A stretch of DNA of 44,254 bases from a virus: the UHGV virus genome UHGV-1376702. One strand, given 5' to 3'. The notes under the pieces were generated by a model. The model saw nothing but the letters and a program-made list of their open reading frames with translations. It had not been told where the DNA came from and made no database searches. Below, piece after piece: positions 1,244-44,254 of this stretch. A program made the translations under genes and the position numbers. Each line of letters opens with the position of its first letter. Position 1 is the stretch's first letter.

Positions 1244-1546
1244 ATGGCAGGGGCAGCTAAACGCAGTCGCCTCTCGGAGCTGCACCGTATGTTCACCGAG
1301 GCCTTGATTGAAGAAATCAAGCAGTCTAAGGAAGATGAGGTGCCGCTCCCCGCAGCAGATAAATCGGTCATTGCTAAGTTCTTGAAGGATAACGACATCA
1401 CCGCGGACGCAGATTCCGAGGAGATGCAGGACCTTCGTGACGAATTCGATGACGAGCTAGCGGCGCGCAGAGAGGCGCGTAAGCAAGAGATTCTAAATAA
1501 AGTTGGTGGTTCAGACTCTGAGGACTTACTAGAAGGAATTGTCTAA
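1244..1546 (+). CDS. terminase small subunit (putative)
   Basis: 100 aa acidic protein with RBS AGGAGAAG; stop overlaps the start of the large terminase gene (TAATGG); position and size typical of T7-like small terminase. Confidence 0.5.
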   Translation: MAGAAKRSRLSELHRMFTEALIEEIKQSKEDEVPLPAADKSVIAKFLKDNDITADADSEEMQDLRDEFDDELAARREARKQEILNKVGGSDSEDLLEGIV

Positions 1547-3402
1547 TGGTATCGGTGAAGACTGCGCGAAGACTGCGCATGCTCAACCAGAAACTTACTG
1601 GTTATAGTGCGAATCCGCGCAGTATTCCCAAAGAGGAGCGCGAGGATATCGCGATGATGATGGCCGCGGCGCTAAGCGACTTCCGGGAATTCGCGTACAT
1701 CGGTATGCGGTTCCTGGGCTTTACGCTCACGGACATGCAGGCCGACATTGCAGAGTACATGCAGAAGGGCCCTAGGAAGCGAATGGTGGCCGCGCAGCGT
1801 GGTGAGGCTAAGTCTACACTAGCTGCGCTGTACGCCGTCTGGAGGCTCATACAGGACCAATCCTGCCGTATCCTGATTGTGTCTGGTGCAGAGAAGCAGG
1901 CGTCCGATGTAGCGAACTTAATCATTCGTATGCTGGAAACCTGGCCGCTGCTGTGCTACTTGAAGGCTGACTCTACTCGTGGGGACCGTACTTCATTCGA
2001 AGGTTATGATGTTCACTGCGACCTGAAACCTCTAGATAAGTCCGCCAGCGTAGCCTGTGTAGGTATCACTGCATCCCTGCAGGGGAAGCGTGCGGACCTG
2101 CTGATTCCGGATGATATCGAGACCACCAAGAATGGTTTAACGCAAACCCAGCGTGAGCAGCTGCTGATGATTTCTAAAGACTTCGCGGCTATCTGTACGC
2201 ACGGGGATACGCTGTACCTGGGTACACCACAGACCAAGGACAGTATCTATAAAACCCTGCCGGGACGTGGCTTCGAGGTCCGCGTGTGGCCCGGGCGCAT
2301 TCCGTCTGTTGAAATGGAAGAGCGATATGGAAGTACACTTGCTCCTTATATCCTGGAGCTTATTGAGCGCGGCTATAAACGCACCGGCTTCGGAGTCGAT
2401 GGGACGCTAGGCGAGAGCACGGACCCCGGGCGCTATGACGAGGATGCACTGATTGAGAAGGAGCTGGACTTTGGTCCGGAAGGCTTCCAGCTGCAGTACA
2501 TGCTCGACACCACCCTGTCCGACCAAATGCGTACGCGTATCAAGCTTTCGGATATGCTGGTTTACTCTGGCAGCCAGGAGTCCTCACCGGAGACGTTCTC
2601 CTACATCGCGGACCGCCGGTACCTGTACCAGCATGAGCATGAGGGGATTATGGGTCAGCAGATGTACTTCCCGGCATTCTACGGGGACATGCACCTGCCG
2701 TACCAGCATAAGGTACTGGTGGTGGACCCGGCTGGTTGTGGTGGGGACGAAGTGTCCTACGCTGCTGGAGGTGCTGCGAACTCGTACATTCACCTATTCT
2801 CCGTAGGCGGATTCCAAGGAGGTATCAGCGAAGAGAACATTGATAAACTGATTGACCTGTGTGTAGAGTTGGACATCCCGGATATGGTGGTGGAGAGCAA
2901 TATGGGGCACGGTACCGTGTCTATGCTTATCCTGAACCGATTACGTGAGCGGCGTCTCGCCGGTATCGGTGTAAGGGACCTGAATAACTCCACGCAGAAA
3001 GAGCGTCGTATCATCGACACAATCAGCCCAGTTACTCGTCGCCATCGCCTGATAGTGCATGAGCGTGCTATTCACGACGATATCAGTACCTGTATGGCAT
3101 ATTCCCGCGATAGGCGTTGGCTGTACTCTGCGTTCGCGCAGTTGTCCGGTATCACGTACGACCGCGGTAGCCTTGCGAAGGATGACCGGGCAGACGCAAT
3201 CGCCATGATGGTGGCTACGCTGAATGGGCATCTGGTGGAAGATGAGAAAGTGGTGGCTGAGCGTGAGTCTGAGAAGATGGCTCGGGCCTTCATTGAGAAC
3301 CCGCTGGATTGGGCACAGAGCAAAGTGTCTAAGGGCCTTCGGGGTGTAGCTGCTCGGCTGCATAACCGAGGCAGAGGTAAACAACATAGAGGAAGAAGAT
3401 AA
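1546..3402 (+). CDS. terminase large subunit
   Basis: 618 aa; N-terminal ATPase-like region (RMVAAQRGEAKST) and C-terminal nuclease-like region (VVDPAGCGGDEVSYAAGG); size and synteny match T7 gp19-type TerL. Confidence 0.85.
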   Translation: MVSVKTARRLRMLNQKLTGYSANPRSIPKEEREDIAMMMAAALSDFREFAYIGMRFLGFTLTDMQADIAEYMQKGPRKRMVAAQRGEAKSTLAALYAVWRLIQDQSCRILIVSGAEKQASDVANLIIRMLETWPLLCYLKADSTRGDRTSFEGYDVHCDLKPLDKSASVACVGITASLQGKRADLLIPDDIETTKNGLTQTQREQLLMISKDFAAICTHGDTLYLGTPQTKDSIYKTLPGRGFEVRVWPGRIPSVEMEERYGSTLAPYILELIERGYKRTGFGVDGTLGESTDPGRYDEDALIEKELDFGPEGFQLQYMLDTTLSDQMRTRIKLSDMLVYSGSQESSPETFSYIADRRYLYQHEHEGIMGQQMYFPAFYGDMHLPYQHKVLVVDPAGCGGDEVSYAAGGAANSYIHLFSVGGFQGGISEENIDKLIDLCVELDIPDMVVESNMGHGTVSMLILNRLRERRLAGIGVRDLNNSTQKERRIIDTISPVTRRHRLIVHERAIHDDISTCMAYSRDRRWLYSAFAQLSGITYDRGSLAKDDRADAIAMMVATLNGHLVEDEKVVAERESEKMARAFIENPLDWAQSKVSKGLRGVAARLHNRGRGKQHRGRR

Positions 3403-7261: not shown

Positions 7262-7723
7262 ATGTCTATGAACATCAAATATGACACAACATCCCCTAGC
7301 TGCTTGGTGTGGCTCAAGGGTAGGCGCGCCGGTGCTCCAGCGGGTACCCGCAACACTCGTGGCTACTGGGTGGTACAGGTATCTGGTAGAAAGATACAGG
7401 CACACCGCCTCATCTGGGAACTACACAACGGGCCTATTCCAGACGGATATGTGGTGGACCACATCAACCAAAACCCCAGTGACAACAGATTAGAGAACCT
7501 GCGCTTAGCTACGGTTAGCGAAAACAACTGTAACGCACGCAGGTCTAAGCGGGAACATCCTAGGGGTGTATACTACACTGGCACCTGCTGGCGCGGGGAG
7601 TTCTGGAAGGACGGTAAGCGTTACATGAAGAAGCACAGCTCCTACGAAGTTATCTGCAAGTGGGTACTAGAGAAACGTCAAGAGCAACACAAGGCCTTCA
7701 CCCCGGGGCATGTGTATACCTGA
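7262..7723 (+). CDS. HNH homing endonuclease
   Basis: 153 aa; HRLIWELHNGPIPDGYVVDHINQNPSDNRLENLRLAT matches the HNH_3-type motif of free-standing phage homing endonucleases; RBS AATGAGGA. Confidence 0.8.
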   Translation: MSMNIKYDTTSPSCLVWLKGRRAGAPAGTRNTRGYWVVQVSGRKIQAHRLIWELHNGPIPDGYVVDHINQNPSDNRLENLRLATVSENNCNARRSKREHPRGVYYTGTCWRGEFWKDGKRYMKKHSSYEVICKWVLEKRQEQHKAFTPGHVYT

Positions 7724-7810
7724 AACCAAAAATTATTATACTCACCCTTGGGCCTCCCTCACCCTCAACGCGCCCAATTGCCCCCATAGGGGGTGCCTAG
7801 CGTCAATTTA

Positions 7811-7821
7811 GGGGGGGGGGG
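7811..7821. repeat. G11 homopolymer tract
   Basis: Eleven consecutive G in the non-coding region. Confidence 0.9.
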
Positions 7822-7928
7822 CACTGGTGGGGCCTGCTAGTGCGCACTAGAGCGCCTCAGCGGGCCTGTGCTGCGCTCTAAGGCTATTGCCAGTGCTACC
7901 CTATGGCTATCACTGTGCGTTCACTAGG

Positions 7929-7972
7929 GCGCTTCCTGTGCGCTTCCTGTGCGCTTCCTGTGCGCTTCCTGT
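7929..7972. repeat. tandem direct repeat, 4 x 11 bp (GCGCTTCCTGT)
   Basis: Four perfect head-to-tail copies read directly from the sequence. Confidence 0.9.
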
Positions 7973-8240
7973 GGGCCATAGGGGCGTGCTCTGCCTTGCT
8001 TATTTTGTGCGCCTCAGTGGGCCTGCCTAGTGCCTGTCTAGTGCCTGCGCAGTGGGGCCATAGGGTATGCCTAGTGCTATCCCTAGTGTGCACTAGGCTA
8101 TCCACTGGCTATCCTTAGTGCTTTACATTGTGCTAATTATGTGCTACGCTGCGCGCTCCCCACTAGGGCGCACATCCACCACACCGCACTATCCAGCGCT
8201 ATCCCTTTGCTCTTACTTTCATTCGAAAGCTATTATGAAA

Positions 8241-8260
8241 TGATGTTACAGGAGTAGGAG
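8241..8260 (+). promoter_or_regulatory. conserved motif copy 1 (ATGTTACAGGAGTAGGAG); candidate phage-RNAP promoter
   Basis: One of three identical copies of a 17-19-nt sequence (others at about 29667 and 41572); this copy is intergenic near the putative genome left end. Confidence 0.35.
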
Positions 8261-8527
8261 GGTTTTAGGGCACTATATACACTACTTAATACTAGTCCTT
8301 ACTAGTCCCTACTAGGCACTCACTAGTATGGCCCTGTGCCTACGTAGTAGGCTGCCATAACTACATAGTCACCGCATCACTACGTTCCTTCACTTACGTT
8401 ACGTCACTACGTTCTGCTTTATGTAGTATTAGATAGTATTGGCTAGACGTGGCTAGTATTGGCTACAGCCAGTGTCAGCACAGTGCTATCCCTAGTGGCT
8501 ATCCCTATAATATATAAGGAGTTATAC

Positions 8528-9082
8528 ATGTTACCATCTAGTCGGGCTACGGCTAAAGCCACTGGTAGTACATACTACTACACAGGGAAGCACTGTAAGT
8601 ACCAGCACACGGCAAAGCGCCTCACCAGTTCAGGGGAGTGCTCCGAGTGCTTTAAGATTAGGAGTACCAGCCCAGCTACTAAGGAGCGTATGCGGGAGTA
8701 CCATAAGGTTTATCAGGTACGTAAGGCAGAGGCCTTGAGAGAGTACCGTAAGACACGCCGACCTAAGCACATTATGACAGAGGAGCAATTACAGCGTAAG
8801 GTTCGCCACAATGCGCGATACCGTGCTGCGCGTACTCAATCCGTACCCTCATGGTATGGCGAGTGGGATGAGTTTGTTATGTTGGAGGCTATCGCTTTAG
8901 CAGCCGAGAGGGCGGAGTGTACTGGCATAGCGTGGCATATTGACCATATGCTACCGCTAAAGGCTAAAGAGGTGTGCGGCTTACACTGTGCGGGGAACAT
9001 TCAGGTGATACCCGCAACGCTTAATACACATAAGTGTAACAGGCTGCTATTCACGGAGCCGTTGGAGTGGCTAAAGGCATAA
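8528..9082 (+). CDS. HNH endonuclease with N-terminal zinc ribbon
   Basis: Start refined to ATG 8528 (RBS AAGGAG, TATAAT just upstream); Cys-x-x-Cys pairs near the N-terminus; C-terminal HNH motif AWHIDHMLPLKAKEVCGLHCAGNIQVIPATLNTHKCN. Confidence 0.7.
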   Translation: MLPSSRATAKATGSTYYYTGKHCKYQHTAKRLTSSGECSECFKIRSTSPATKERMREYHKVYQVRKAEALREYRKTRRPKHIMTEEQLQRKVRHNARYRAARTQSVPSWYGEWDEFVMLEAIALAAERAECTGIAWHIDHMLPLKAKEVCGLHCAGNIQVIPATLNTHKCNRLLFTEPLEWLKA

Positions 9083-9088
9083 ACTTGA

Positions 9089-9127
9089 GGTAATACAGTA
9101 CTATAAATGCTGTATTACCTTTTTTTA
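9089..9127 (+). terminator. rho-independent terminator
   Basis: Perfect 10-bp stem GGTAATACAG / CTGTATTACC with an 11-nt loop followed by T7, directly after the HNH gene stop. Confidence 0.6.
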
Positions 9128-9263
9128 TAAAAAGTGCTTGCTTTTTTAAATCTGCTAGGTGTATATTTATCCCATCGAAAGCGATACGGTCTACCGGGTA
9201 GCTCTAGATTCCAGAGTCAACTGGATAAGTAGACAGCCTGATAAGTCATATGAAAAACAGGTA

Positions 9264-9292
9264 TTGACAATAGCAGTAAACGCTTTTATAGT
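9264..9292 (+). promoter_or_regulatory. sigma70-type promoter (TTGACA-N17-TATAGT)
   Basis: Perfect -35 hexamer, 17-bp spacer, 5/6 match at -10; predicted start near 9299-9300. A weaker candidate (TTGCTT-N18-TATATT) lies at about 9138-9167. Confidence 0.6.
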
Positions 9293-9541
9293 TTGAACCA
9301 TGTTGCGGAGCAGTGTAGCGCCTAAAGGTGCTCTGACCACTAACCCTAGATACATGATAGTAGTAAGCGTGCCGGACGTTATCACCGGGGTTCTGAGACA
9401 AACCACACTGTCGAGGCGAGAGCAGCTCGCTCCTCTGAATCGAGGGAACAAGGCGCGGAGAGTATCCCGCAAAGAGCATATAACATAGCGTAGCAGTAAC
9501 AAGGCTGCGCTAGATTATGTTCTCTGAGAGGTAAGAAGATT

Positions 9542-24379: not shown

Positions 24380-24540
24380 TGCGTAAATTTATATCCTACA
24401 TAATTTCAGTCCCAGCACTGGTACTACTTGCAATCAGCTTGATGCTAATGGCGCTGGCGCTCAGTGTAGCCGGAGGCTCTAAGGGCGTGGCTATGCTGGG
24501 CCGTGCAATCCATGCTTTTACTGACCACTTAAAGGTGTAG
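24379..24540 (+). CDS. small membrane protein (about 53 aa)
   Basis: Not in the ORF track (under 60 aa); ATG after GGAGGG; single hydrophobic helix ISVPALVLLAISLMLMALALSVA. Confidence 0.3.
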   Translation: MRKFISYIISVPALVLLAISLMLMALALSVAGGSKGVAMLGRAIHAFTDHLKV

Positions 24541-24543
24541 AGA

Positions 24544-24706
24544 ATGCGTAACTTCTTTGCAAAATCATTTTACTTCCTGTTAGTAGCCCCGCTAGTGCCT
24601 GTAGCTATCCTGTGCTGGGCATTTGAGAAGGTAGAAAACAGTCAGGCGCTGACCGCCTGGGAATCCTGGGCGCGTAAGTTGACCAAGAAGGTTACGGGGG
24701 TCTGAT
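24544..24706 (+). CDS. small membrane protein (about 53 aa)
   Basis: Not in the ORF track; hydrophobic segment FYFLLVAPLVPVAILCWAF; stop overlaps the exonuclease start. Confidence 0.3.
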
Positions 24707-27192: not shown

Positions 27193-29661
27193 ATGATTAG
27201 CGCCCTGAATACGGTTGTAGTACCAGAGGAAGCACTGGTGAAACGCCAGCTGGAGCTCGAAGAGACCTATAAGATTCGCGGAATCGAGCGGGCACGTAAG
27301 CTGATTACGGACGCATTGCAGAACGGCGGGATTATGAACCTGCCGATGACGCAGCGTATGCTCACCTCGGCATATGAGGTGGCTGCTGCCGCTATCGACG
27401 AGATGCGAAACGTCAAAGTCCCGGGCATTGGTGGTAAGTACCGCCGGTTCCTGCGCTTAGTCCCCTTGGATGTCCTGACCACACTGAGCCTGTGCACAAT
27501 GTTTGAAGCGTTTAGCGTCGCCCCCGGCGAGTCTGCTAGTCGCCGCCAGACTGCGCAGGCGGTAATGTCCGCACTGGGCCGGAACGTGCAGTCAGAGCTA
27601 CTGGCTCTGCAGTTACGCAACGTAGCCCCAGCGTACATGGACCGAGTATATGAGTATCTCACAGAGCGCCGTACGAAGTCCCCTACGCACATCCTGCGTA
27701 CGCTCCGTGCCAGTGCCGAGAATGTGCACTATGGGCACGAGCCTTGGACCAATGCCCAGAACATCTCCGTAGGGCGTCTGCTGTGTGCCGCGGTGTTTGA
27801 GACTGGCTTGTTCCAGTGGAAGACAGGTAGCGGGAACCTGAGCATGCTCTACCCGGCTGATGACGTTATGGAGGCCTTCCAGAAACTGGTGGAATCTGCC
27901 GACACTGTAACGATGAAGCCGCCTATGCTGGTCCCCCCGGTGCAGCACACCACTATGTGGGATGGTGGGTACCTTACTCCTATCGACAACCGCGGTACGT
28001 ACCATAACTCGCACATCGACCGCTCCAGGCTGCGTGAAGTGGCGGAAGCATTTAAGTCCGCGGATGGCATCAAGAAGGCGCTTAATAAGGCACAGGAAAC
28101 CCCATACCGTATTAATAAGCGCATACTGGAACTGGTGCAAGAAGCACGGGCCCTGGGTATTGGGATAGGTATGCCCCGCTCAATACCGGAGCCGAAGCCT
28201 GAGTGGTACTTGGATGGTGTACCAAAAGAGAACTACACCGAAGAAGAACTGGACCGCTTCGGTGAGTGGAAGACGCGTATGTCCCTGTGGTACAGTGCTG
28301 ACCGTAAGCGTGTGTCGCAACTACGCAGCCTTCTGACTACGTTGGAGATGGCAGAGGAATTCAAAGATGAGAAAGCCCTGTACTTCCCGACTTGTGTGGA
28401 CTGGCGCTACCGCCTGTACTTCAAGTCCTCGTTGCACCCGCAGGGTTCTGATTTGCAGAAGGCTCTGCTGGAATTCGGTAGAGGTAAACCTCTTGGAGAG
28501 AGAGGGTTGTTCTGGCTTAAAGTGCACGTCGCCACTTGCTTTGGTTATGACAAAACCCTATTCGAAGACCGCGCAGATTGGGTGGATAAAAATATGGCAG
28601 TTGTCCGCTCAGTTGCAGAGAATCCATTTGATTCGGACGCTTTTAAGCAGGCCGATTCACCGTGGTGTTTCTTGGCAGCAGTGCTCGACCTGGTGGCTGC
28701 TCTGGATTCTCCGTGCCCAGAAGAGTACATCTCCAGAACTCCGGTTGCTATGGACGCCACAAACTCAGGTGGACAGCACCTCTCAGCGCTCCTGAGAGAC
28801 CCTGTAGGCGGTCGTCTGACGAACCTGTACTGGGAAGGTAACGACAAGAAAGCGGACCTGTACATGGACGTGAAGCGCCGCACGGATGAGAAGGTGATAC
28901 TGGACCTGGACAAGGAGGATTTCGTTATCCAGAGCACGTACTGGAGAGAGAACGAAATCACCCGCAGCATGACCAAGCGCCCAAGTATGACCTACTTCTA
29001 CAGCGCCACGGTGCGTAGCTGCAGCGACTACATCTTTGAAGGCGCTTGCGCTGAGGGATACGAGGGTACCGATACTAACAGTCTGTGGAACCTGTCGTGC
29101 TACCTGGCACCGCGTATGCGCGCCGCTATAGAGGAGGCAAACCCCGCTGCTGCGGCAGTTATGGGGTACTTGCAGAATCTCGCTAGACGCGTACCGGCAA
29201 GCCAGCACCTGCAGTGGTATACGCCGCTGGGTGGGCTCGTAATGAACCGTTACACGCAGCGTGAAGAAGTGCGTGTACGTATTGACTGCATGAACCTGTC
29301 AGCGGTACTGGTACACAACCGGGACTTCAAAACTTGTAACAAGCGCAAGGCGGCCTCCGGGATTGCCCCAAACTTTGTGCATAGCCTGGACAGTACGCAC
29401 TTGATGATGGTGCTCTGCGCTGCGGAGGGGTTGGACATTGTGCCTATTCACGACTCGCTGGCTACTCACGCAGCTGACGTCGACACTATGCATAGGCACA
29501 TCCGTGAGCAGTTTGTGCGTCTATATGAAGAGAATGACCTGCTTGGCGATATTACTCGGGCAGCGGCAGCAGCCGGGGCAGACTTGACGGACCTGGACAT
29601 GCCAGAGGTGGGCACTTTGGACATCCGGCAAGTGCTAGAATCCCCGTTCTTCTTCTGCTAA
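27193..29661 (+). CDS. single-subunit DNA-directed RNA polymerase (T7-like)
   Basis: 822 aa; catalytic motifs DATNSGGQHLSALLRD (T7: DGSCSGIQHFSAMLRD) and PNFVHSLDSTHLMM (T7: PNFVHSQDGSHL). Confidence 0.95.
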   Translation: MISALNTVVVPEEALVKRQLELEETYKIRGIERARKLITDALQNGGIMNLPMTQRMLTSAYEVAAAAIDEMRNVKVPGIGGKYRRFLRLVPLDVLTTLSLCTMFEAFSVAPGESASRRQTAQAVMSALGRNVQSELLALQLRNVAPAYMDRVYEYLTERRTKSPTHILRTLRASAENVHYGHEPWTNAQNISVGRLLCAAVFETGLFQWKTGSGNLSMLYPADDVMEAFQKLVESADTVTMKPPMLVPPVQHTTMWDGGYLTPIDNRGTYHNSHIDRSRLREVAEAFKSADGIKKALNKAQETPYRINKRILELVQEARALGIGIGMPRSIPEPKPEWYLDGVPKENYTEEELDRFGEWKTRMSLWYSADRKRVSQLRSLLTTLEMAEEFKDEKALYFPTCVDWRYRLYFKSSLHPQGSDLQKALLEFGRGKPLGERGLFWLKVHVATCFGYDKTLFEDRADWVDKNMAVVRSVAENPFDSDAFKQADSPWCFLAAVLDLVAALDSPCPEEYISRTPVAMDATNSGGQHLSALLRDPVGGRLTNLYWEGNDKKADLYMDVKRRTDEKVILDLDKEDFVIQSTYWRENEITRSMTKRPSMTYFYSATVRSCSDYIFEGACAEGYEGTDTNSLWNLSCYLAPRMRAAIEEANPAAAAVMGYLQNLARRVPASQHLQWYTPLGGLVMNRYTQREEVRVRIDCMNLSAVLVHNRDFKTCNKRKAASGIAPNFVHSLDSTHLMMVLCAAEGLDIVPIHDSLATHAADVDTMHRHIREQFVRLYEENDLLGDITRAAAAAGADLTDLDMPEVGTLDIRQVLESPFFFC

Positions 29662-29666
29662 AAATT

Positions 29667-29685
29667 TAATGTTACAGGAGTAGGA
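29667..29685 (+). promoter_or_regulatory. conserved motif copy 2 (TAATGTTACAGGAGTAGGA); candidate phage-RNAP promoter
   Basis: Identical 17-mer core immediately downstream of the RNAP gene and directly abutting the ATG at 29686. Confidence 0.35.
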
Positions 29686-32873: not shown

Positions 32874-33893
32874 ATGGCCAACACTATTTATAATGGCAAC
32901 CTGACTCGTCCGCACTGGGGCGGCGCAGACTCCGACGTAGACGTTCACCTGGAAGTGTACCAGAACGAAGTGGATACCCGCTTCCAGTACCAGGCTCTAT
33001 TCCTGGGCCTCTCCAGCCAGCGCTCTATCAGCGGTTCCAACACCTACCGTATTGACCGACTGAACACCTCCTCGGTGAAAGGTCGTCGCTCCGGTGAGGC
33101 GCTGGATAGCACTCCGGTCCGTAACGATAAGATGATTATCGTGGTGGATACGGTGCTGTATATCCGTAACCCGATTGACTACCAGGATGACTGGACCGGT
33201 CCGGACTTCCTGACTGAGATGGGCCAGAACAACGGCTCGGAGTTCGCGGAGACCTTCGACCAGGCGCACCTGATTCAGCTCATCAAGGGCCGTTCCTGGG
33301 TTGCTCCGGCGCACTTGAAACCGGCGTTCAACGACGGTATCGAGGTAGGCGCAGCTATCCTGGTTCCGGGTACCACCACCGCCACTCAGCTGACCCAGGC
33401 TGAGATGGAGGCGAACGCCATGAACATCAACCTGGCCCACAAGGCTGGTATTGACGAACTCATCAAGCGTAAGACCCCGCTGGCGGACATGATTACCCTG
33501 GTGGACGTCGATACCTATTCGCGTCTGCTGGAGCATCCGAAGCTCCTGAACCTGGACTTCGGCGCGTCCAACAATGATGGTTACAAAGACCGTCGTGTAG
33601 TGAAGATGAACGGTGTACCTGTAGTTGAGTGCACCGAGTTCCCGACCGCTGCTGGTACGCACCCGCTGGGCTCCGCTTACACCATCACCGCTGACGACGC
33701 GCTGTGCCGTATGGTGACTTTCAGCAAGTCCAAGACCCTGGTGACTGTTGAGGCTAAGCCGTTCACCTCCCGTATCTGGGATGATGAGCGAGAGTTCAGC
33801 AACGTGCTGGACTGCTACGCAATGTACAACATCGGTCTGCGTCGTCCGGACACCGCTGCAGTGACCAAGTTCACCTTCACCACCAAGTCCTAA
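32874..33893 (+). CDS. major capsid protein
   Basis: 339 aa; RBS AAGGAAA; co-linear resemblance to T7 gp10A (e.g. KMIIVVDTVLYIRNPIDYQD versus T7 KVITIDGLLTADVLIYDIED); followed by a strong terminator. Confidence 0.85.
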   Translation: MANTIYNGNLTRPHWGGADSDVDVHLEVYQNEVDTRFQYQALFLGLSSQRSISGSNTYRIDRLNTSSVKGRRSGEALDSTPVRNDKMIIVVDTVLYIRNPIDYQDDWTGPDFLTEMGQNNGSEFAETFDQAHLIQLIKGRSWVAPAHLKPAFNDGIEVGAAILVPGTTTATQLTQAEMEANAMNINLAHKAGIDELIKRKTPLADMITLVDVDTYSRLLEHPKLLNLDFGASNNDGYKDRRVVKMNGVPVVECTEFPTAAGTHPLGSAYTITADDALCRMVTFSKSKTLVTVEAKPFTSRIWDDEREFSNVLDCYAMYNIGLRRPDTAAVTKFTFTTKS

Positions 33894-40828: not shown

Positions 40829-43800
40829 ATGGCTCAGTTTCTGAACCAAGAACCGAATCCACAGGAAAAGGATTCTGCTAAGGGCGCAACACTTAAACCT
40901 GCGCCTGAGCGCGTAGATTGGAACGATGCCGGAGACAACGGCTTAAACGCACTGGAGCGTGCCTCCTTACTGGCGCAGGCCAAGACCCCAGCTACTACAG
41001 CCGGGGAGAGCTTTGCGTCTGGTATGGGTAACAGCATCATCGCCGCAGCTATCCGTAAGGCCTCTGCCCCGGCATTTGACCGGGACCAGAACTTTAACGC
41101 CAAGCAGACTCTGAGCAGCGATACCAGGGCTAAGCTGTATGCTCCGAATCAGGAAGAGATTGAGTACCTGCACGACTCTGTATCGGTCGAGGATTACAAC
41201 TACCGCATGCAGCAGATGCTTGAGCAACGCAACCGTGACCGCTTAATGGCTGACAACACGGTAGCCGGGTTCGCGGGTATGTTGGTGGGTGATTCTCCGT
41301 TCATCCTGGCCCCGATGTCTGCCGCTGGTATTGCTGGCCGCGCAGGCTTAGCTGCACGGACTGCTATCCGCGCTGCTGACGTAGGCTCCGCATTCTATGC
41401 GCAGGACCAACTGGGCCAGTCTGCTGCGGTAACTGCACTGGTAGCGGGCGTAGCTGGGTTGGACCAGCTCTGGGATATGTCTAGGGCTGCTAAAGCTGCT
41501 GCTAAGGCTCGTACTGGGCGTGAGCCTATGTTCGACCCAGAAGCGCCTACAACTCGTACAGCGAGGGACGCTAATGTTACAGGAGTAGGAGAGGGAGAGG
41601 AAATTCTCACTAAGACACTGGGTGAAAGCATCCAAGTATCGAGAAACAATACCGCCTCCGTGAACATGAAAGCACAGCACGTAGTTCAGTTCTTGAAGAA
41701 GTCTGAGCACTTGACAGCAGGACAGAAGGCTATTCTGGACACGCTGGGCGATGCTGTAAATGACATTGATTTTAAACTGGTAGCAGGCTCCGCAAACCGT
41801 AGCCGCTACACTTACGCACAACAAGATTTAGCTAAGCGTGGAGAGATATCCCTGCGCGCGCCTAAGCAAGCTAACGGCAGCACCTGGACTACAGTCGGTG
41901 ATGCGCTGCGCGCTATGGATGCAGATACAAGCAAGGTGGCCGTGCACGAACTGATTCATGCCGCTACTGCGCGCGCCATTGACAGTAATCCCGAGATTGC
42001 TAAACGCCTGGAGGAAGTGCGCGCTGTTATTGCAGCTGACTCCACCCTGACACCGCGTATGCGGTATTACGCAAGTAATGTGCATGAGATGCTGGCAGGT
42101 TTAGGCGACAGCCCTGAGTGGGTTGAGCACCTGGCACGTACGCAGTCTCCCACCGGTAAGAGCATGCTCCGCCAACTGGGTGAGTACATCATGAATGCCT
42201 TGGGCATCAAAGCCAAGGGCTCTGCCTTGGAGGATGTCCTGGATGCGTATGAGGACGCAGTTAAGTGGACCGCTAAGGATTATGCAGACCAAGCCCAGAG
42301 CTTCCGTAGCGAAGCCTTCCAGGACCTGGCGGGCAGCACCACCCTCAATGAGGCTAAGAGCGCCCAAGCTATGCTGGACGGCGCCAAGAAGAAGCTCTCC
42401 ACTATGTTTGCCCTGTACGATAATATCGCTCAAGGCAACGAAGACTTGGCTAAACTGCTAGTGTCGGATGCGTCCGCAGTAGGCGGCCGTCGCCCGTCAG
42501 TGGTAGACTACAAGCGTAACCTCACTTTGGAGATGGATGCTCGCGCCAGCGTAGTGGAAGATGCTATCCTGGGTGCGTTGAAGGATAAGGGTGTAGGGGT
42601 GCTCTCACGCTTCTTCCATCGTAGTAATTTCCGCGCTGAGCGGGCTGCGCTGGAAGACCGCCTGAGTAAGTACCTGGATGCTGCCTACAGCGCTGACGTA
42701 AACGGTCGCGCTGTTCCGGTACCGGATGCAGAGATTGCTCCGCTGGTTGATGCCTATCATCGCTCTGGCTGGGCTAGCAAGTGGCATGATCACATGACCG
42801 CTGCTGGCTTGGTGGATGATGGTGCGTTGGTTAAATCCGACTACTACTTCCCGCGCCAGTACAGCTACGACAAGATGCGCCAAGGTATCGCACAGGGTAA
42901 CACTCTGGATGACTACCGCGCCCTGTTCCGGTCCGCCCTGCGGGACGTGTACCCGAGCATGGAGTCAGAGGTAGTGCAGCGTGTTGCTAAGGAGATGGTT
43001 GACGGTATCTACAACGGCCGTGCTGGGCAGTCTGGTCCTATGTGGAAGCAGCTGATTAACGGTATGGGTAACGACGAGGTCGTTATGGCTATGCGTAGCG
43101 CTGGTGTAGAAGAGTCTGCAATCCAGAGCTTCCTGGCTGGTAACGTACGAGAATCCGGCAGCACATCCCCTGCGCGGAACCTGCGTCAGCGTACTCGGTT
43201 CAACATGGACAAAGAGTACCTGATTAACGGAAAGAGCATGCGCATGCAGGACCTGATGGATACTGACGTAGCCAAGGTTATGCACGGGTACACTAACCGT
43301 ATGTCTGGACGTGTAGGCATGGCCTATGCAGGCGTACAGGACCTGGGGCAGCTCGCTAAGATGATTGATGAGTCTAAGCACGCACTGGCGGATTCCGCTA
43401 AGTGGGAGAAGACCGTTAATGACACCATCGACTTTATCCTGGGCGGGGCACCTGCTGACGCCGGGCAGCTTCCGGACTTGCTGCGAGCAGCTGGGAACAT
43501 GGCTAACGCTACCATGCTTAAGAACTCCGGCCTGTATCAGCTGACTGATACTGCTCTGGCTATGAAGGAGTTCGGTATGGCTAGAGTGCTGCGCAGTATG
43601 CGTGACCAGCCTTGGTTCAAGGAAGGTGCCGTAGCTATCAATACTCCGGATATGGCTGCCCGTCTAGACACCGTGCTGCGAGGCAATATCCAGAAGGAGA
43701 TGCGATTCCGCTGGCTGAATACATACGCTGACGATAACCTGGACCTGACCCGTCAGGCCTCCTGGTTCAACGTCACTCAGAACGTCGGGCAGGCTGCACG

Positions 43801-44254
43801 CCACGTCAACGGCATGAGTATGGTGCACCGGCTGCAGGTTAACCTGAACTCCGGTATTGTGGCGGATGAGCTTACGCAGATGTTCAAGGGCGACGCTGAG
43901 GCGTTTAAGCGTCTGGAGCGTTTTGGGCTTACCCGCGAAATTGCAGACCGTGCTATCGCTGCCAACAAGGCTAACCCTGGCACTATGTTCCAGCCGGACC
44001 TGCAGATGCAAGTTGAGGTTGTAGGTACGCGTATGATGGACTACCTTGTACAGCAGATTCGTACTGGAGAGACCTCGCACTTTGCACAGTTCAATCCTAT
44101 CGGCAAAGTCATTGTAGGGTACCAGAGCTTCGCACTGGCTGCCACTAACAAGATTCTGCGTAGAGAGTTGAACGATGCTGGGTGGATTGGTGTGGCCCAC
44201 ATTATGGCGTACCAGTTCCCGTTGATGCTGCTGGCTACTATGGCTAAGCACAGC
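40829..44254 (+). CDS. large internal virion / ejection protein (gp16-like), 3'-truncated by window end
   Basis: ATG 40829 after RBS AGGAGA; ORF stays open for 1142 codons to the end of the window; together with 1..273 it would give about 1232 aa, typical of T7 gp16-class proteins. Confidence 0.7.
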   Translation, partial: MAQFLNQEPNPQEKDSAKGATLKPAPERVDWNDAGDNGLNALERASLLAQAKTPATTAGESFASGMGNSIIAAAIRKASAPAFDRDQNFNAKQTLSSDTRAKLYAPNQEEIEYLHDSVSVEDYNYRMQQMLEQRNRDRLMADNTVAGFAGMLVGDSPFILAPMSAAGIAGRAGLAARTAIRAADVGSAFYAQDQLGQSAAVTALVAGVAGLDQLWDMSRAAKAAAKARTGREPMFDPEAPTTRTARDANVTGVGEGEEILTKTLGESIQVSRNNTASVNMKAQHVVQFLKKSEHLTAGQKAILDTLGDAVNDIDFKLVAGSANRSRYTYAQQDLAKRGEISLRAPKQANGSTWTTVGDALRAMDADTSKVAVHELIHAATARAIDSNPEIAKRLEEVRAVIAADSTLTPRMRYYASNVHEMLAGLGDSPEWVEHLARTQSPTGKSMLRQLGEYIMNALGIKAKGSALEDVLDAYEDAVKWTAKDYADQAQSFRSEAFQDLAGSTTLNEAKSAQAMLDGAKKKLSTMFALYDNIAQGNEDLAKLLVSDASAVGGRRPSVVDYKRNLTLEMDARASVVEDAILGALKDKGVGVLSRFFHRSNFRAERAALEDRLSKYLDAAYSADVNGRAVPVPDAEIAPLVDAYHRSGWASKWHDHMTAAGLVDDGALVKSDYYFPRQYSYDKMRQGIAQGNTLDDYRALFRSALRDVYPSMESEVVQRVAKEMVDGIYNGRAGQSGPMWKQLINGMGNDEVVMAMRSAGVEESAIQSFLAGNVRESGSTSPARNLRQRTRFNMDKEYLINGKSMRMQDLMDTDVAKVMHGYTNRMSGRVGMAYAGVQDLGQLAKMIDESKHALADSAKWEKTVNDTIDFILGGAPADAGQLPDLLRAAGNMANATMLKNSGLYQLTDTALAMKEFGMARVLRSMRDQPWFKEGAVAINTPDMAARLDTVLRGNIQKEMRFRWLNTYADDNLDLTRQASWFNVTQNVGQAARHVNGMSMVHRLQVNLNSGIVADELTQMFKGDAEAFKRLERFGLTREIADRAIAANKANPGTMFQPDLQMQVEVVGTRMMDYLVQQIRTGETSHFAQFNPIGKVIVGYQSFALAATNKILRRELNDAGWIGVAHIMAYQFPLMLLATMAKHS
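41572..41591 (+). promoter_or_regulatory. conserved motif copy 3 (TAATGTTACAGGAGTAGGAG); candidate phage-RNAP promoter
   Basis: Identical core inside the gp16-like ORF; in T7, late promoters also lie inside upstream structural genes. Confidence 0.3.

Follow-up and report, generated by a model that had tools for sequence, protein, structure and literature searches.

A predicted direct terminal repeat and early promoter region at the joined genome ends of a KP34-like Klebsiella phage

Genome context and the gene-free interval

The window, that is, the whole stretch of 44,254 nucleotides that was analysed, is a complete, circularly permuted genome of a Drulisvirus (KP34-like Autographiviridae), a Klebsiella phage group. 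An ORF spans the join between positions 44254 and 1, and the record is therefore a permuted circle. All genes are encoded on one strand, the left end being the leading end. They include a T7-type terminase small subunit (1244–1546; PF11123, E 2e-19), a terminase large subunit (1546–3402; PF22530, T7 terminase RNaseH-like domain, E 1e-30) and a phage RNA polymerase of 822 aa (27193–29661; PF00940, E 2e-92), equal in length to that of KP34. The interval under study is bordered by the following elements:

7262–7723: HNH endonuclease gene, directly upstream of the interval (HNH_3 match, E 1e-22)
8516–8521, + strand: ribosome-binding site AAGGAG, 6 nt before the ATG at 8528
8528–9082, + strand: first gene, 184 aa, no Pfam family

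The gene-free interval comprised 804 nt (7724–8527), the next longest gap in the window being 325 nt. It was matched by 258 phage records, nearly all of them Klebsiella Drulisvirus, and nucleotide identity to the Drulisvirus relatives over the region was 78–87%. It is the place where both genome ends meet in the circularised assembly, an ordinary and largely documented arrangement for the group. The first gene was present in KpV71 and absent from phiKpS2 and fHe-Kpn01; this extra gene and a T7 A2-like host promoter, both located after the leader, distinguish the present genome from the Drulisvirus left ends compared.

The short repeats that an earlier note on this DNA had listed for the interval were all found, and far above chance. 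In 7740–8527, CTAGTG/CACTAG occurred 11 times (0.29 expected from the density in the remainder of the genome, as for all motifs), GCTATCC six times, always on the + strand (0.20 expected), CCATAGGG four times (0.04 expected) and CTAG 17 times (1.65 expected).

Predicted direct terminal repeat and genome ends

7712–7756, + strand: unique flank of the right genome end (GTGTATACCTGAAACC...ACTCACCCTTGGGCCTC), containing the HNH gene stop codon
7757–7991, unstranded: direct terminal repeat, ~235 bp, one collapsed copy (concatemer junction), assigned by homology to mapped or annotated ends

The proposal of the earlier note that the region contains the genome terminus was supported by homology, which placed the left end of the repeat at 7757 and its right end at 7991 (±2). 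In the alignment, base 7757 coincided with the mapped or annotated left end of fHe-Kpn01, KpV71, SAA231, AttikonH1N2 and KpV475, and many database records begin at the homologous base. The annotated repeat ends of the relatives, among them the annotated repeat of Kp_Pokalde_001, fell at 7757 and 7991–7993. The ends of fHe-Kpn01 are blunt, with a repeat of 222 bp, as determined by PhageTerm, restriction digestion, ligation and Sanger sequencing (PMC7291057). This phage starts with CCTCACCCTG..., its nt 1 aligning with 7757 and its boundary motif at nt 222 with 7991. The junction motif reproduced annotated repeat lengths of 222, 243 and 245 exactly and two others within 1 bp; measured in this way, the repeat had a length of 235 bp here, compared with 212–307 bp in 24 relatives.

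Cut sites are predicted at 7756/7757 and 7991/7992 (±2). The first 40 nt of the repeat occurred a single time in the window; virion DNA would carry the repeat at both ends, so that the packaged genome would measure ~44.49 kb. The ~45 bp preceding the left cut site were conserved in 28 relatives, whatever the upstream gene. From these comparisons, the locus is considered to be the joined ends of a linear T7-type phage genome, assembled in circular form, with a probability of roughly 0.85.

Elements inside the terminal repeat

7757–7800, + strand: terminal signature, consisting of a CCTCAC end, the 13-bp palindrome CCCCCATAGGGGG and then the first CCTAG unit
7781–7793: 13-bp palindrome CCCCCATAGGGGG, repeat nt 25–37
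7811–7821, + strand: G11 homopolymer, hypervariable tract within the terminal repeat
7837–7850, unstranded: 14-bp palindrome CTAGTGCGCACTAG, built from two CTAGTG units in inverted orientation
7929–7972, + strand: four tandem copies of GCGCTTCCTGT, close to the right end of the terminal repeat

In the terminal signature, ~35 of the 44 positions were at least 95% identical across 27 relatives, the other, variable positions lying in the first 20 nt. A literature search for the palindrome sequence found nothing. Exact matches to the 14-mer CCCCCATAGGGGGT in viral contigs numbered more than 120 and were diverse; being within a rough chance estimate, they were given no value as evidence.

The G11 run, the 14-bp palindrome and the four tandem copies (TRF: 4.1 copies, 100% matches) were confirmed at the positions listed. 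The G run is the sole homopolymer of at least eight bases in the window, and its counterpart in the relatives was G10, G11, G12, G13, G15, G20 or an interrupted G5-N-G4; KP34 and fHe-Kpn01 have an interrupted run, in contrast to the uninterrupted G11 found here. Relatives carry imperfect forms of the 14-bp palindrome (CTAGTGCGCACCAG, CTAGGGCGCACCAG), and its palindromy is therefore not conserved as such. The 11-bp unit was represented in the 27 relatives by 0 or 1 exact copy and by at most two degenerate copies, so that the four-copy state is regarded as a recent expansion of ~33 bp. It is because of this expansion to four copies that the repeat, at ~235 bp, departs in length from those of the Drulisvirus relatives.

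Right boundary and short-repeat arrays

7970–8007, + strand: conserved block across the right repeat boundary (TGTGGGCCATAGGGGCGTGCTC/TGCCTTGCTTATTTTG, the boundary lying at the slash), ~95% conserved
8019–8117, + strand: second short-repeat array with 11–12-bp spacing, containing GCCTAGTG units, GCTATCC units and the second palindrome
8083–8096: second palindrome CTAGTGTGCACTAG, within the second array

The block at 7970–8007 is a candidate cut-site or polymerase-pause signal, and the homologous site is annotated as 'concatemer junction' in Kp_Pokalde_001. A hairpin-terminator at the repeat boundary, terminator-like in the scan, was dropped, its fold not being significant (z +1.0). The second palindrome, which had been placed near 8081, is real and its exact position is 8083–8096. 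Units of 6–7 nt were repeated at least five times at ~10–13-bp spacing, both inside and beside the terminal repeat, with a strict strand bias (GCTATCC 7:0, CCTGTG 6:0, TGGCTA 6:0), and the 8074–8117 portion of the second array was ~95% conserved.

Predicted promoters and leader

8122–8150, + strand: candidate host sigma-70 promoter P1 (TTTACA, 17-nt spacer, TGcTACGCT with extended −10)
8207–8236, + strand: weaker candidate host promoter P2 (TTGCTC, 18-nt spacer, TATTAT)
8241–8256, + strand: KP34-type phage RNA polymerase strong promoter S2 (TGATGTTACAGGAGTA), predicted transcript start G8257
8257–8285, + strand: initially transcribed sequence (GGAGGGTTTTAGGGCACTATATACACTAC), highly conserved
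8288–8327, + strand: TACTAG(T) array with 10-bp spacing (TRF period 10, 3.7 copies)
8424–8465, + strand: 10-bp TAGTATTGGC array (TRF period 10, 4.2 copies), 5' arm of the hairpin
8432–8490, + strand: long hairpin (−30.2 kcal/mol, z −3.0, a stability reached by none of 200 shuffles)

An early control region had also been suspected, and this was supported by the presence of the KP34 RNA polymerase promoter S2 and of a conserved sigma-70-like promoter. The conserved promoter block (8122–8285) combines one better-supported and one weaker host sigma-70 candidate with S2. The hexamers and the extended −10 TG of P1 were invariant in 27 of 27 relatives, the spacer being variable, from which a host promoter function is inferred. 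The block around P2 (8200–8243) was highly conserved; its −35 differed in some relatives (TCTCTC in fHe-Kpn01). Each of the two candidates matched 8 of 12 hexamer positions and neither was called by the consensus sigma-70 scan of 7600–8700, whose single hit lay on the minus strand and did not exceed the number expected from shuffles; P1 and P2 are therefore proposed from their conservation only. A consensus-grade sigma-70 site (11/12), T7 A2-like, was located beyond the interval, at 9264–9292.

The strong promoter of KP34 is defined as the 16-nt sequence T(A/G)ATGTTACAGGAGTA, and S2 of that phage, a 16-nt promoter, is active in vitro (Lu et al. 2019, PMC6834552). The site found here is an exact match to the 16-nt KP34 sequence and is predicted to be an active promoter for the polymerase of the present phage. 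The conserved 19-mer recorded earlier at 8241 (TGATGTTACAGGAGTAGGA), with one-mismatch copies at 29667 and 41572, is real and corresponds to S2; its 16-nt core TRATGTTACAGGAGTA occurred at exactly three sites in the window (8241, 29667 and 41572) against 0.01 expected. Many relatives carry substitutions in S2 (TGAAGTTAC...), so that its importance may vary. A literature search for transcription start sites in Drulisvirus found nothing.

The initially transcribed sequence includes TTAGGGCAC..TATA, which presumably resembles the K11 promoter minus 2 nt. The TACTAG(T) array that follows was present in 0–5 copies in the relatives, at equal offset from S2.

Comparison with other phages

Within Drulisvirus, the first bases (CCTCACCCT...), the palindrome, the junction motif and the promoter block are the same in fHe-Kpn01, KpV71 (246-bp repeat) and KP34. 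S2 lies at nt 475–490 from the left end in KP34 and at nt 485–500 here, and the three-site promoter layout of KP34 is also the same, with one site at the left end, one immediately downstream of the polymerase gene and one within a virion-protein gene.

The earlier note had regarded the repeat families as distinct from those of T7-type genomes. This holds with respect to T7, whose unit is CCTAAAG, but not in general, as the same or near-identical units were found in LIMElight (array unit GGCTATC), phiKDA1 (GGATAGC, the reverse complement of GGCTATC) and SP6 (CTTAGTG). T7 has an equivalent array, with CCTAAAG units in equivalent places, among them the stretch that separates the terminal repeat from the first promoter. 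The same 13-bp palindrome is found at nt 26 in T7 and at nt 25 in phiKDA1, and degenerate versions at nt 25–29 in SP6, T3, phiKMV, LIMElight and K11. Directly to the right of the repeat, phiKDA1, LIMElight and phiKMV have related motifs.

The left end resembles those of T7, T3 and K11 in the CTCAC-type end, the CCCCCATAGGGGG palindrome at nt 25–26 with a CCTA unit 2 nt further on, the 6–7-nt unit at 10–13-bp spacing within and beside the repeat, the conserved motif to the right of the repeat, the phage promoter 400–500 bp in, and the host promoters in the first kilobase (A1–A3 in those phages). It differs from the same three phages in that the phage promoter follows the candidate host promoters here and precedes them there, and in the motif after the repeat (TGCCTTGCTTATTTTG here, ATCTGTT there). 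Compared with T7, the units are CTAGTG, GCTATCC and CCTGTG instead of CCTAAAG, only the first CCTA unit being positionally equivalent. Moreover, the concatemer junction of T7 has short-repeat arrays to its left and to its right, whereas no array exists on the right-end side here, the HNH stop codon being only 33 nt away from the repeat.

T7-like fPS phages of Yersinia have been described as carrying 10/12-bp repeats and homopolymer tracts, both variable, within the terminal repeat, together with 11–34 short repeats ahead of the first phage promoter (Salem and Skurnik 2018, PMC5923468). These phages differ in having poly-C tracts as opposed to poly-G (+ strand), in belonging to another subfamily and in their units.

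Alternative interpretations

That the interval encodes small proteins is most improbable. A 71-aa ORF (7903–8118) is present in the window and in KpV71, where its counterpart is annotated as gp01, and the annotation of AttikonH1N2 has four small ORFs in the homologous region. However, the coding reading of this ORF was rejected: its frame is broken in 25 of 26 relatives, with interruption after 8–63 codons, the homologous segments of 16 of the 26 differ in length by non-multiples of three, the product has no Pfam family, and the ORF runs over the 11-bp tandem repeat and the terminal-repeat boundary. Once it is discounted and the first start is set at 8528, the description of the interval as the only long stretch without an ORF stands. 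It is very unlikely, if slightly less so, that the G11 run and the four-copy tandem repeat arose through errors of sequencing or assembly. Both kinds of sequence, homopolymers and short tandem repeats, are error-prone, and the four-copy state of the 11-bp unit is unique among 28 sequences; against this, most independently sequenced relatives have a G10–G20 run at the equivalent position, relatives were found to have the 11-bp unit in one or two copies, and similar variation is documented in T7-like phages (PMC5923468). The short repeats could also be slippage-prone filler without sequence-specific function, constraint acting only at the cut sites and promoters. Such a view, to which we give about one chance in four, is favoured by the free copy number among relatives (tandem repeat 0–4, TACTAG array 0–5, TAGTAKT array 0–6, G run 5–20), by the poor conservation of 8008–8070 and 8290–8520 and by the lack of conservation of the perfect palindrome at 7837. 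On the other hand, each subfamily examined retains an array of its own 6–7-nt unit at the equivalent place, the GCTATCC, CCTGTG and TGGCTA units are strictly strand-specific, and the high conservation of the array at 8074–8117 argues against filler.

A replication origin had been suggested as well and is judged unlikely; on this reading, the repeats would act as iterons and transcription from S2 would prime replication. The T7 promoter phiOL is said to prime replication at a secondary origin, and S2, at ~485 bp from the left end, is loosely analogous to it in position (T7 nt 405, T3 366–388, K11 479–501); in addition, the repeats are helically phased and GC content falls to 0.36–0.46 downstream of S2. 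Nevertheless, the origin claim found no support: a search for DnaA boxes gave zero hits across the window, and a pronounced AT-rich island is lacking, the GC content per 100 nt falling no lower than 0.36 (at the promoter block). The cumulative GC skew climbs monotonically, without inflection at the interval, and the literature searched describes no origin for these phages. The repeats lie mostly upstream of S2, whereas a T7-type origin would need them downstream, and the primary origin of T7 is not at the genome end, which also counts against this reading. Marginally better placed, though still unlikely, is a structured RNA in the leader, with the 8432–8490 hairpin in early transcripts as a processing or stability element similar to R0.3, the RNase III site ahead of the first gene in T3 and T7. 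The stability of the hairpin speaks for it, and about half of the relatives have a comparable hairpin at a similar offset. Among the variant cells of its inner 12 pairs, pairing is preserved by G-U wobble in 24 and lost in 3, and the T3 annotation has an RNase III stem-loop immediately ahead of the first gene. However, covariation was not above shuffles (247 of 500), with only one double change, the S2 leader as a whole (8257–8531) folded no better than shuffles (z −0.77), and the Rfam scan of 7600–8700 at E ≤ 1 gave zero matches. The hairpin is also missing from many relatives and is made here of the tandem units themselves.

Proposed packaging and early expression

With the joined genome ends as the preferred reading, replication would yield head-to-tail concatemers with one copy of the repeat per junction, and the T7-type terminase would recognise conserved sequence flanking the repeat on both sides. 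Three stretches are candidates for its signal: the flank of 45 bp at the right end, the signature CTCAC...CCCCCATAGGGGG and the block GGCCATAGGGG...GCTC/TGCCTTGCTTATTTTG. Cutting would take place at 7756/7757 and at ~7991/7992, and the repeat would be duplicated in the course of packaging, as in T7. The CTAGTG, GCTATCC and CCTGTG units, spaced by 10–12 bp, would be the Drulisvirus counterpart of the CCTAAAG arrays of T7, most likely acting as low-specificity protein-binding or DNA-shaping elements for junction processing, although no protein is known to bind them in any of these phages and the role of the T7 arrays is itself putative. The arrays may grow and shrink through replication slippage, which would account for the variability of the G run and for the four copies of the tandem repeat. 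Host RNA polymerase would, after injection, start at P1, perhaps at P2, and at the stronger site at 9264–9292, leading to expression of the early genes; the phage polymerase, once made, would also fire from S2 at 8257.

These results fix the point at which the genome should be opened, i.e., with 7757 as the start and a second copy of 7757–7991 appended at the right end. ORFs called within the interval are to be flagged as spurious, and three predicted phage-polymerase promoters are identified.

The comparison also suggests that T7-type packaging signals could be dissected comparatively, as a fixed palindrome ~25 nt from the end plus lineage-specific phased repeats, which is of relevance to the engineering and rebooting of therapeutic Klebsiella phages. 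It constitutes a modest refinement and no new kind of system. More tentatively, and with the odds somewhat against it, the left-terminal module may represent a single ancestral element for packaging recognition across Autographiviridae subfamilies, the palindrome acting as terminase anchor and the unit co-evolving with the small terminase. If so, the repeat unit (CCTAAAG, CTTAGTG, CTAGTG, GGCTATC or its reverse complement) would set packaging specificity in each lineage.

The module consists of a CTCAC-type end, a C-run/ATA/G-run palindrome at nt 25–29 and a lineage-specific 6–7-nt unit in helical phase, and the Autographiviridae subfamilies that share it are otherwise without nucleotide similarity. 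The only mildly surprising point is that the terminal 45 bp contain the 13-bp palindrome of T7 at an equal distance from the end.

Genome affiliation and gene layout

The interval matched 258 phage records at 78–87% identity, nearly all of them from Klebsiella phages of the genus Drulisvirus, and sequence comparison places the window genome in this genus (KP34-like, Autographiviridae, Slopekvirinae). All genes of the window are carried on the plus strand. A 1163-codon ORF leaves the window end and resumes in frame at base 1; thus, the genome is complete, circularised by assembly and opened at an arbitrary point. The genes referred to here are:

1244–1546, plus strand, T7-type small terminase
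1546–3402, plus strand, T7-type large terminase
7262–7723, plus strand, HNH_3 homing-type endonuclease gene, last gene before the right genome end
8528–9082, plus strand, first gene, 184 aa, no Pfam family
27193–29661, plus strand, single-subunit RNA polymerase, 822 aa, equal in length to the KP34 enzyme

The first gene (ATG at 8528, 6 nt downstream of AAGGAG) is accessory: KpV71 and a few other phages have it, and phiKpS2 and fHe-Kpn01 lack it. It is followed by a terminator-like hairpin with a 14-bp stem and a T run (9087–9121). Only a subset of relatives carries the HNH_3 gene, whose stop codon is located inside the conserved flank on the right-end side of the junction.

The non-coding interval and its repeats

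The gene-free length was 804 nt; the second longest stretch without a plus-strand ORF (24380–24704) measured 325 nt. This agrees with the earlier note, which had described the interval as the only long ORF-less stretch. A mechanical 71-aa ORF (7903–8118) was rejected as coding, being broken in 25 of 26 relatives and having no family match. The features listed in that note were all present:

7811–7821, G11, the sole homopolymer of at least 8 bases in the 44,254-bp window
7837–7850, perfect palindrome CTAGTGCGCACTAG
7929–7972, GCGCTTCCTGT in four exact tandem copies
8083–8096, second palindrome, CTAGTGTGCACTAG

Its scattered motifs were strongly over-represented in 7740–8527 against the counts expected from motif density in the rest of the genome: CTAGTG/CACTAG (11 versus 0.29), GCTATCC (6 versus 0.20), CCATAGGG (4 versus 0.04) and CTAG (17 versus 1.65). 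An unbiased k-mer count also found CCTGTG and TGGCTA, six copies each; GCTATCC, CCTGTG and TGGCTA lie on a single strand only and CTAGTG in both orientations. Six short arrays with periods of 10–14 bp were detected by TRF.

In an alignment with 27 distinct relatives, the conserved segments were the first 44 bp of the terminal repeat, 7880–7925, 7970–8007 across its right boundary and a long block at 8074–8285; the 45 bp or so that flank the repeat on its left were also conserved, regardless of the preceding gene. The surroundings of the tandem repeat, 8008–8070 and most of 8290–8520 were variable. The conserved block 7992–8007 may be likened, as an analogy only, to a published case.

Terminal repeat

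The terminus proposed in the earlier note was located by homology. Numerous database records of relatives start exactly at the base homologous to 7757, and the annotated repeats of KpV71 (246 bp), Kp_Pokalde_001 (247 bp), SAA231 (267 bp), AttikonH1N2 (245 bp) and KpV475 (243 bp), aligned to the window, begin at 7757 (7756 for Pokalde) and end at 7991–7993. Phage fHe-Kpn01 has blunt ends and a 222-bp repeat, determined with PhageTerm, restriction digestion, fragment ligation and Sanger sequencing (PMC7291057). Its record opens with CCTCACCCTGAACG... and its repeat closes with ...GGGCGCTC|CGTCTTACCTATTTTG, while the window reads CCTCACCCTCAACG... from 7757 and ...GCGTGCTC|TGCCTTGCTTATTTTG at 7991/7992. 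Used as a ruler, this junction motif recovered exactly the annotated lengths of fHe-Kpn01, KpV475 and AttikonH1N2 and gave 235 bp for the window, which falls within the 212–307 bp measured for the genus. The location and extent of the repeat are thus established by homology to experimentally characterised relatives. Its start is present once in the window, so the two virion copies have been collapsed, and a length of about 44.49 kb is expected for the packaged DNA.

The terminal repeat encloses the G11 run, the first palindrome and the GCGCTTCCTGT tandem copies. Relatives differ widely in the G run, which is hypervariable (G10, 11, 12, 13, 15, 20 or an interrupted G5-N-G4); since these variants recur at this site, an artefact was rejected. 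When the 11-bp unit was sought in relatives, as the note had proposed, it was found in 0 or 1 exact copies, with at most two degenerate ones; among the 28 sequences compared, the four-copy state is found only in the window and, judged from this comparison, arose by recent slippage, which added about 33 bp. The 14-bp palindrome is imperfect in relatives, so palindromy there is incidental to two inverted CTAGTG units. One related viral contig (L016, IMGVR_UViG_3300045988_019900) carries the repeat start twice, in opposite orientations separated by about 160 bp; it has a G20 run and lacks all the usual downstream motifs. The inverted starts probably arose by misassembly at the end of the contig.

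Promoters

Transcript starts of KP34 were mapped by 5'-RACE by Lu et al., and T(A/G)ATGTTACAGGAGTA was identified as the strong promoter by in vitro transcription, with three sites: 475–490 (S2, TGATG...), directly after the polymerase gene, and 33721–33736 (PMC6834552). The window contains exactly three matches, listed with the candidate sigma-70 sites:

8122–8150, P1, TTTACA-17-TGcTACGCT, upstream of S2
8207–8236, P2, TTGCTC-18-TATTAT, weaker candidate
8241–8256, S2 (TGATG...), nt 485–500 from the left end
9264–9292, near-consensus sigma-70 site, TTGACA-17-TATAGT, outside the interval
29667–29682, S1 (TAATG...), 6 nt past the polymerase stop codon
41572–41587, S1 (TAATG...), within the long virion-protein ORF crossing the 44254/1 join

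The conserved 19-mer noted at 8241 is therefore the strong promoter of the KP34 RNA polymerase, an identity established by homology to experimentally characterised relatives; by analogy, transcription would start at G8257. The P1 hexamers do not change in any of the 27 relatives, and the spacer between them varies, a pattern that a real sigma-70 promoter would be expected to leave. In a consensus scan neither P1 nor P2 exceeded the threshold, and both are accordingly treated as putative. With the exact S2 match, the P1 hexamers bear out the early control region of the earlier note.

Just downstream of the S2 start, the highly conserved TTTTAGGGCACTATATAC (8262–8280) may resemble the K11/SP6-type promoter core TTAGGGCACACTATA minus two bases, which could be a relic or a coincidence. 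In a concatemer, no other strong promoter lies between the site at 41572–41587, counterpart of KP34 nt 33721–33736, and the junction downstream of it; transcripts from this site would pass through the terminase genes in the direction of the terminal repeat.

Comparison with other Autographiviridae

The window was compared with T7, T3, K11, SP6, phiKMV, LIMElight and phiKDA1 at their left ends. T7 opens TCTCACAGTGTACGGACCTAAAGTT-CCCCCATAGGGGG-TACCTAAAG and the window repeat CCTCACCCTCAACGCGCCCAATTG-CCCCCATAGGGGG-TGCCTAGCG; the 13-bp palindrome starts at nt 26 in T7 (26–38) and at nt 25 of the repeat (7781–7793), and the two phages share a CTCAC-type end as well as a CCTA unit located two bases past the palindrome. 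It also lies 25–26 nt from the left end of phiKDA1, and a degenerate form occurs at nt 25–29 in SP6, T3, K11, phiKMV and LIMElight. A literature search for CCCCCATAGGGGG found no mention of the sequence. On these alignments, the terminal palindrome keeps its position and sequence between distant subfamilies, and this is the only mildly novel element; the arrangement is otherwise of an already known kind, a Drulisvirus terminus with its early control region.

Each lineage has its own 6–7-nt unit at 10–13-bp spacing, within and beside the repeat.

Short repeat units at the left ends of the phages compared
T7: CCTAAAG, 11 copies
SP6: CTTAGT(G), 12 copies
LIMElight: GGCTATC, 6 copies
phiKDA1: GGATAGC (reverse complement of GCTATCC), 6 copies
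phiKMV: CCTGGCT, 5 copies

The earlier note had called the repeat families distinct; the units do differ from CCTAAAG of T7, but those of LIMElight, phiKDA1 and SP6 are identical or nearly so, and since other phages have lineage-specific units, such families are not peculiar to this phage. In T7-like Yersinia phages, variable 10–12-bp repeats and homopolymer tracts lie within the terminal repeat, and 11–34 short repeats precede the first phage promoter (PMC5923468). ATCTGTT begins at the right repeat boundary or 1 nt after it in T7, T3 and K11, whereas Drulisvirus, phiKDA1, LIMElight and phiKMV have a GCCTT/CTTACC-type motif there. In T7, T3 and K11, phiOL, a phage-polymerase promoter, lies 366–501 bp from the end, with host promoters adjoining.

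Alternative readings and proposed mechanism

The analogy with phiOL is the remaining argument for the origin of replication that the earlier note had also placed here; positive evidence was not obtained, as DnaA boxes were not found in the window, and there is neither a strong AT island nor an inflection of the GC skew. Non-functional slippage DNA is plausible for the variable arrays, but fits poorly with the strand bias of the units, the 95% conservation of 8074–8117 and the family-wide recurrence of such arrays. A structured RNA was considered for the hairpin at 8432–8490, made of TAGTATTGGC tandem units about 40 nt ahead of the first gene, in a position resembling the RNase III site R0.3 of T3 and T7. 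The hairpin is stable (-30 kcal/mol, z -3.0) and is found again in about half of the relatives, where the changes are of the wobble type only, but covariation was not significant, and Rfam and whole-leader folding were negative.

Under the reading as terminus and early control region, the conserved flanks and the palindrome would mark concatemer junctions with one repeat copy for recognition; the junctions would then be cut at both boundaries, the repeat being duplicated during packaging. The phased short units may serve as binding or DNA-shaping arrays in junction processing, their copy number drifting by slippage. The left end would enter first, with the host polymerase starting at P1 and at 9264–9292, and S2 would be fired later by the phage polymerase.

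A possible promoter cassette outside the interval

Positions 9216–9279 are 89% identical to T7 nt 541–605, the upstream region and -35 hexamer of host promoter A2, and contribute to the near-consensus site at 9264–9292. With 9083–9320 as query, 458 phage records matched, mostly T7-like Studiervirinae; coverage of at least 80% was reached in only 27, with PSK2, BUCT-H1 and PTF1 among the matches listed. The segment 9216–9292 has the appearance of an early-promoter cassette that subfamilies have exchanged.
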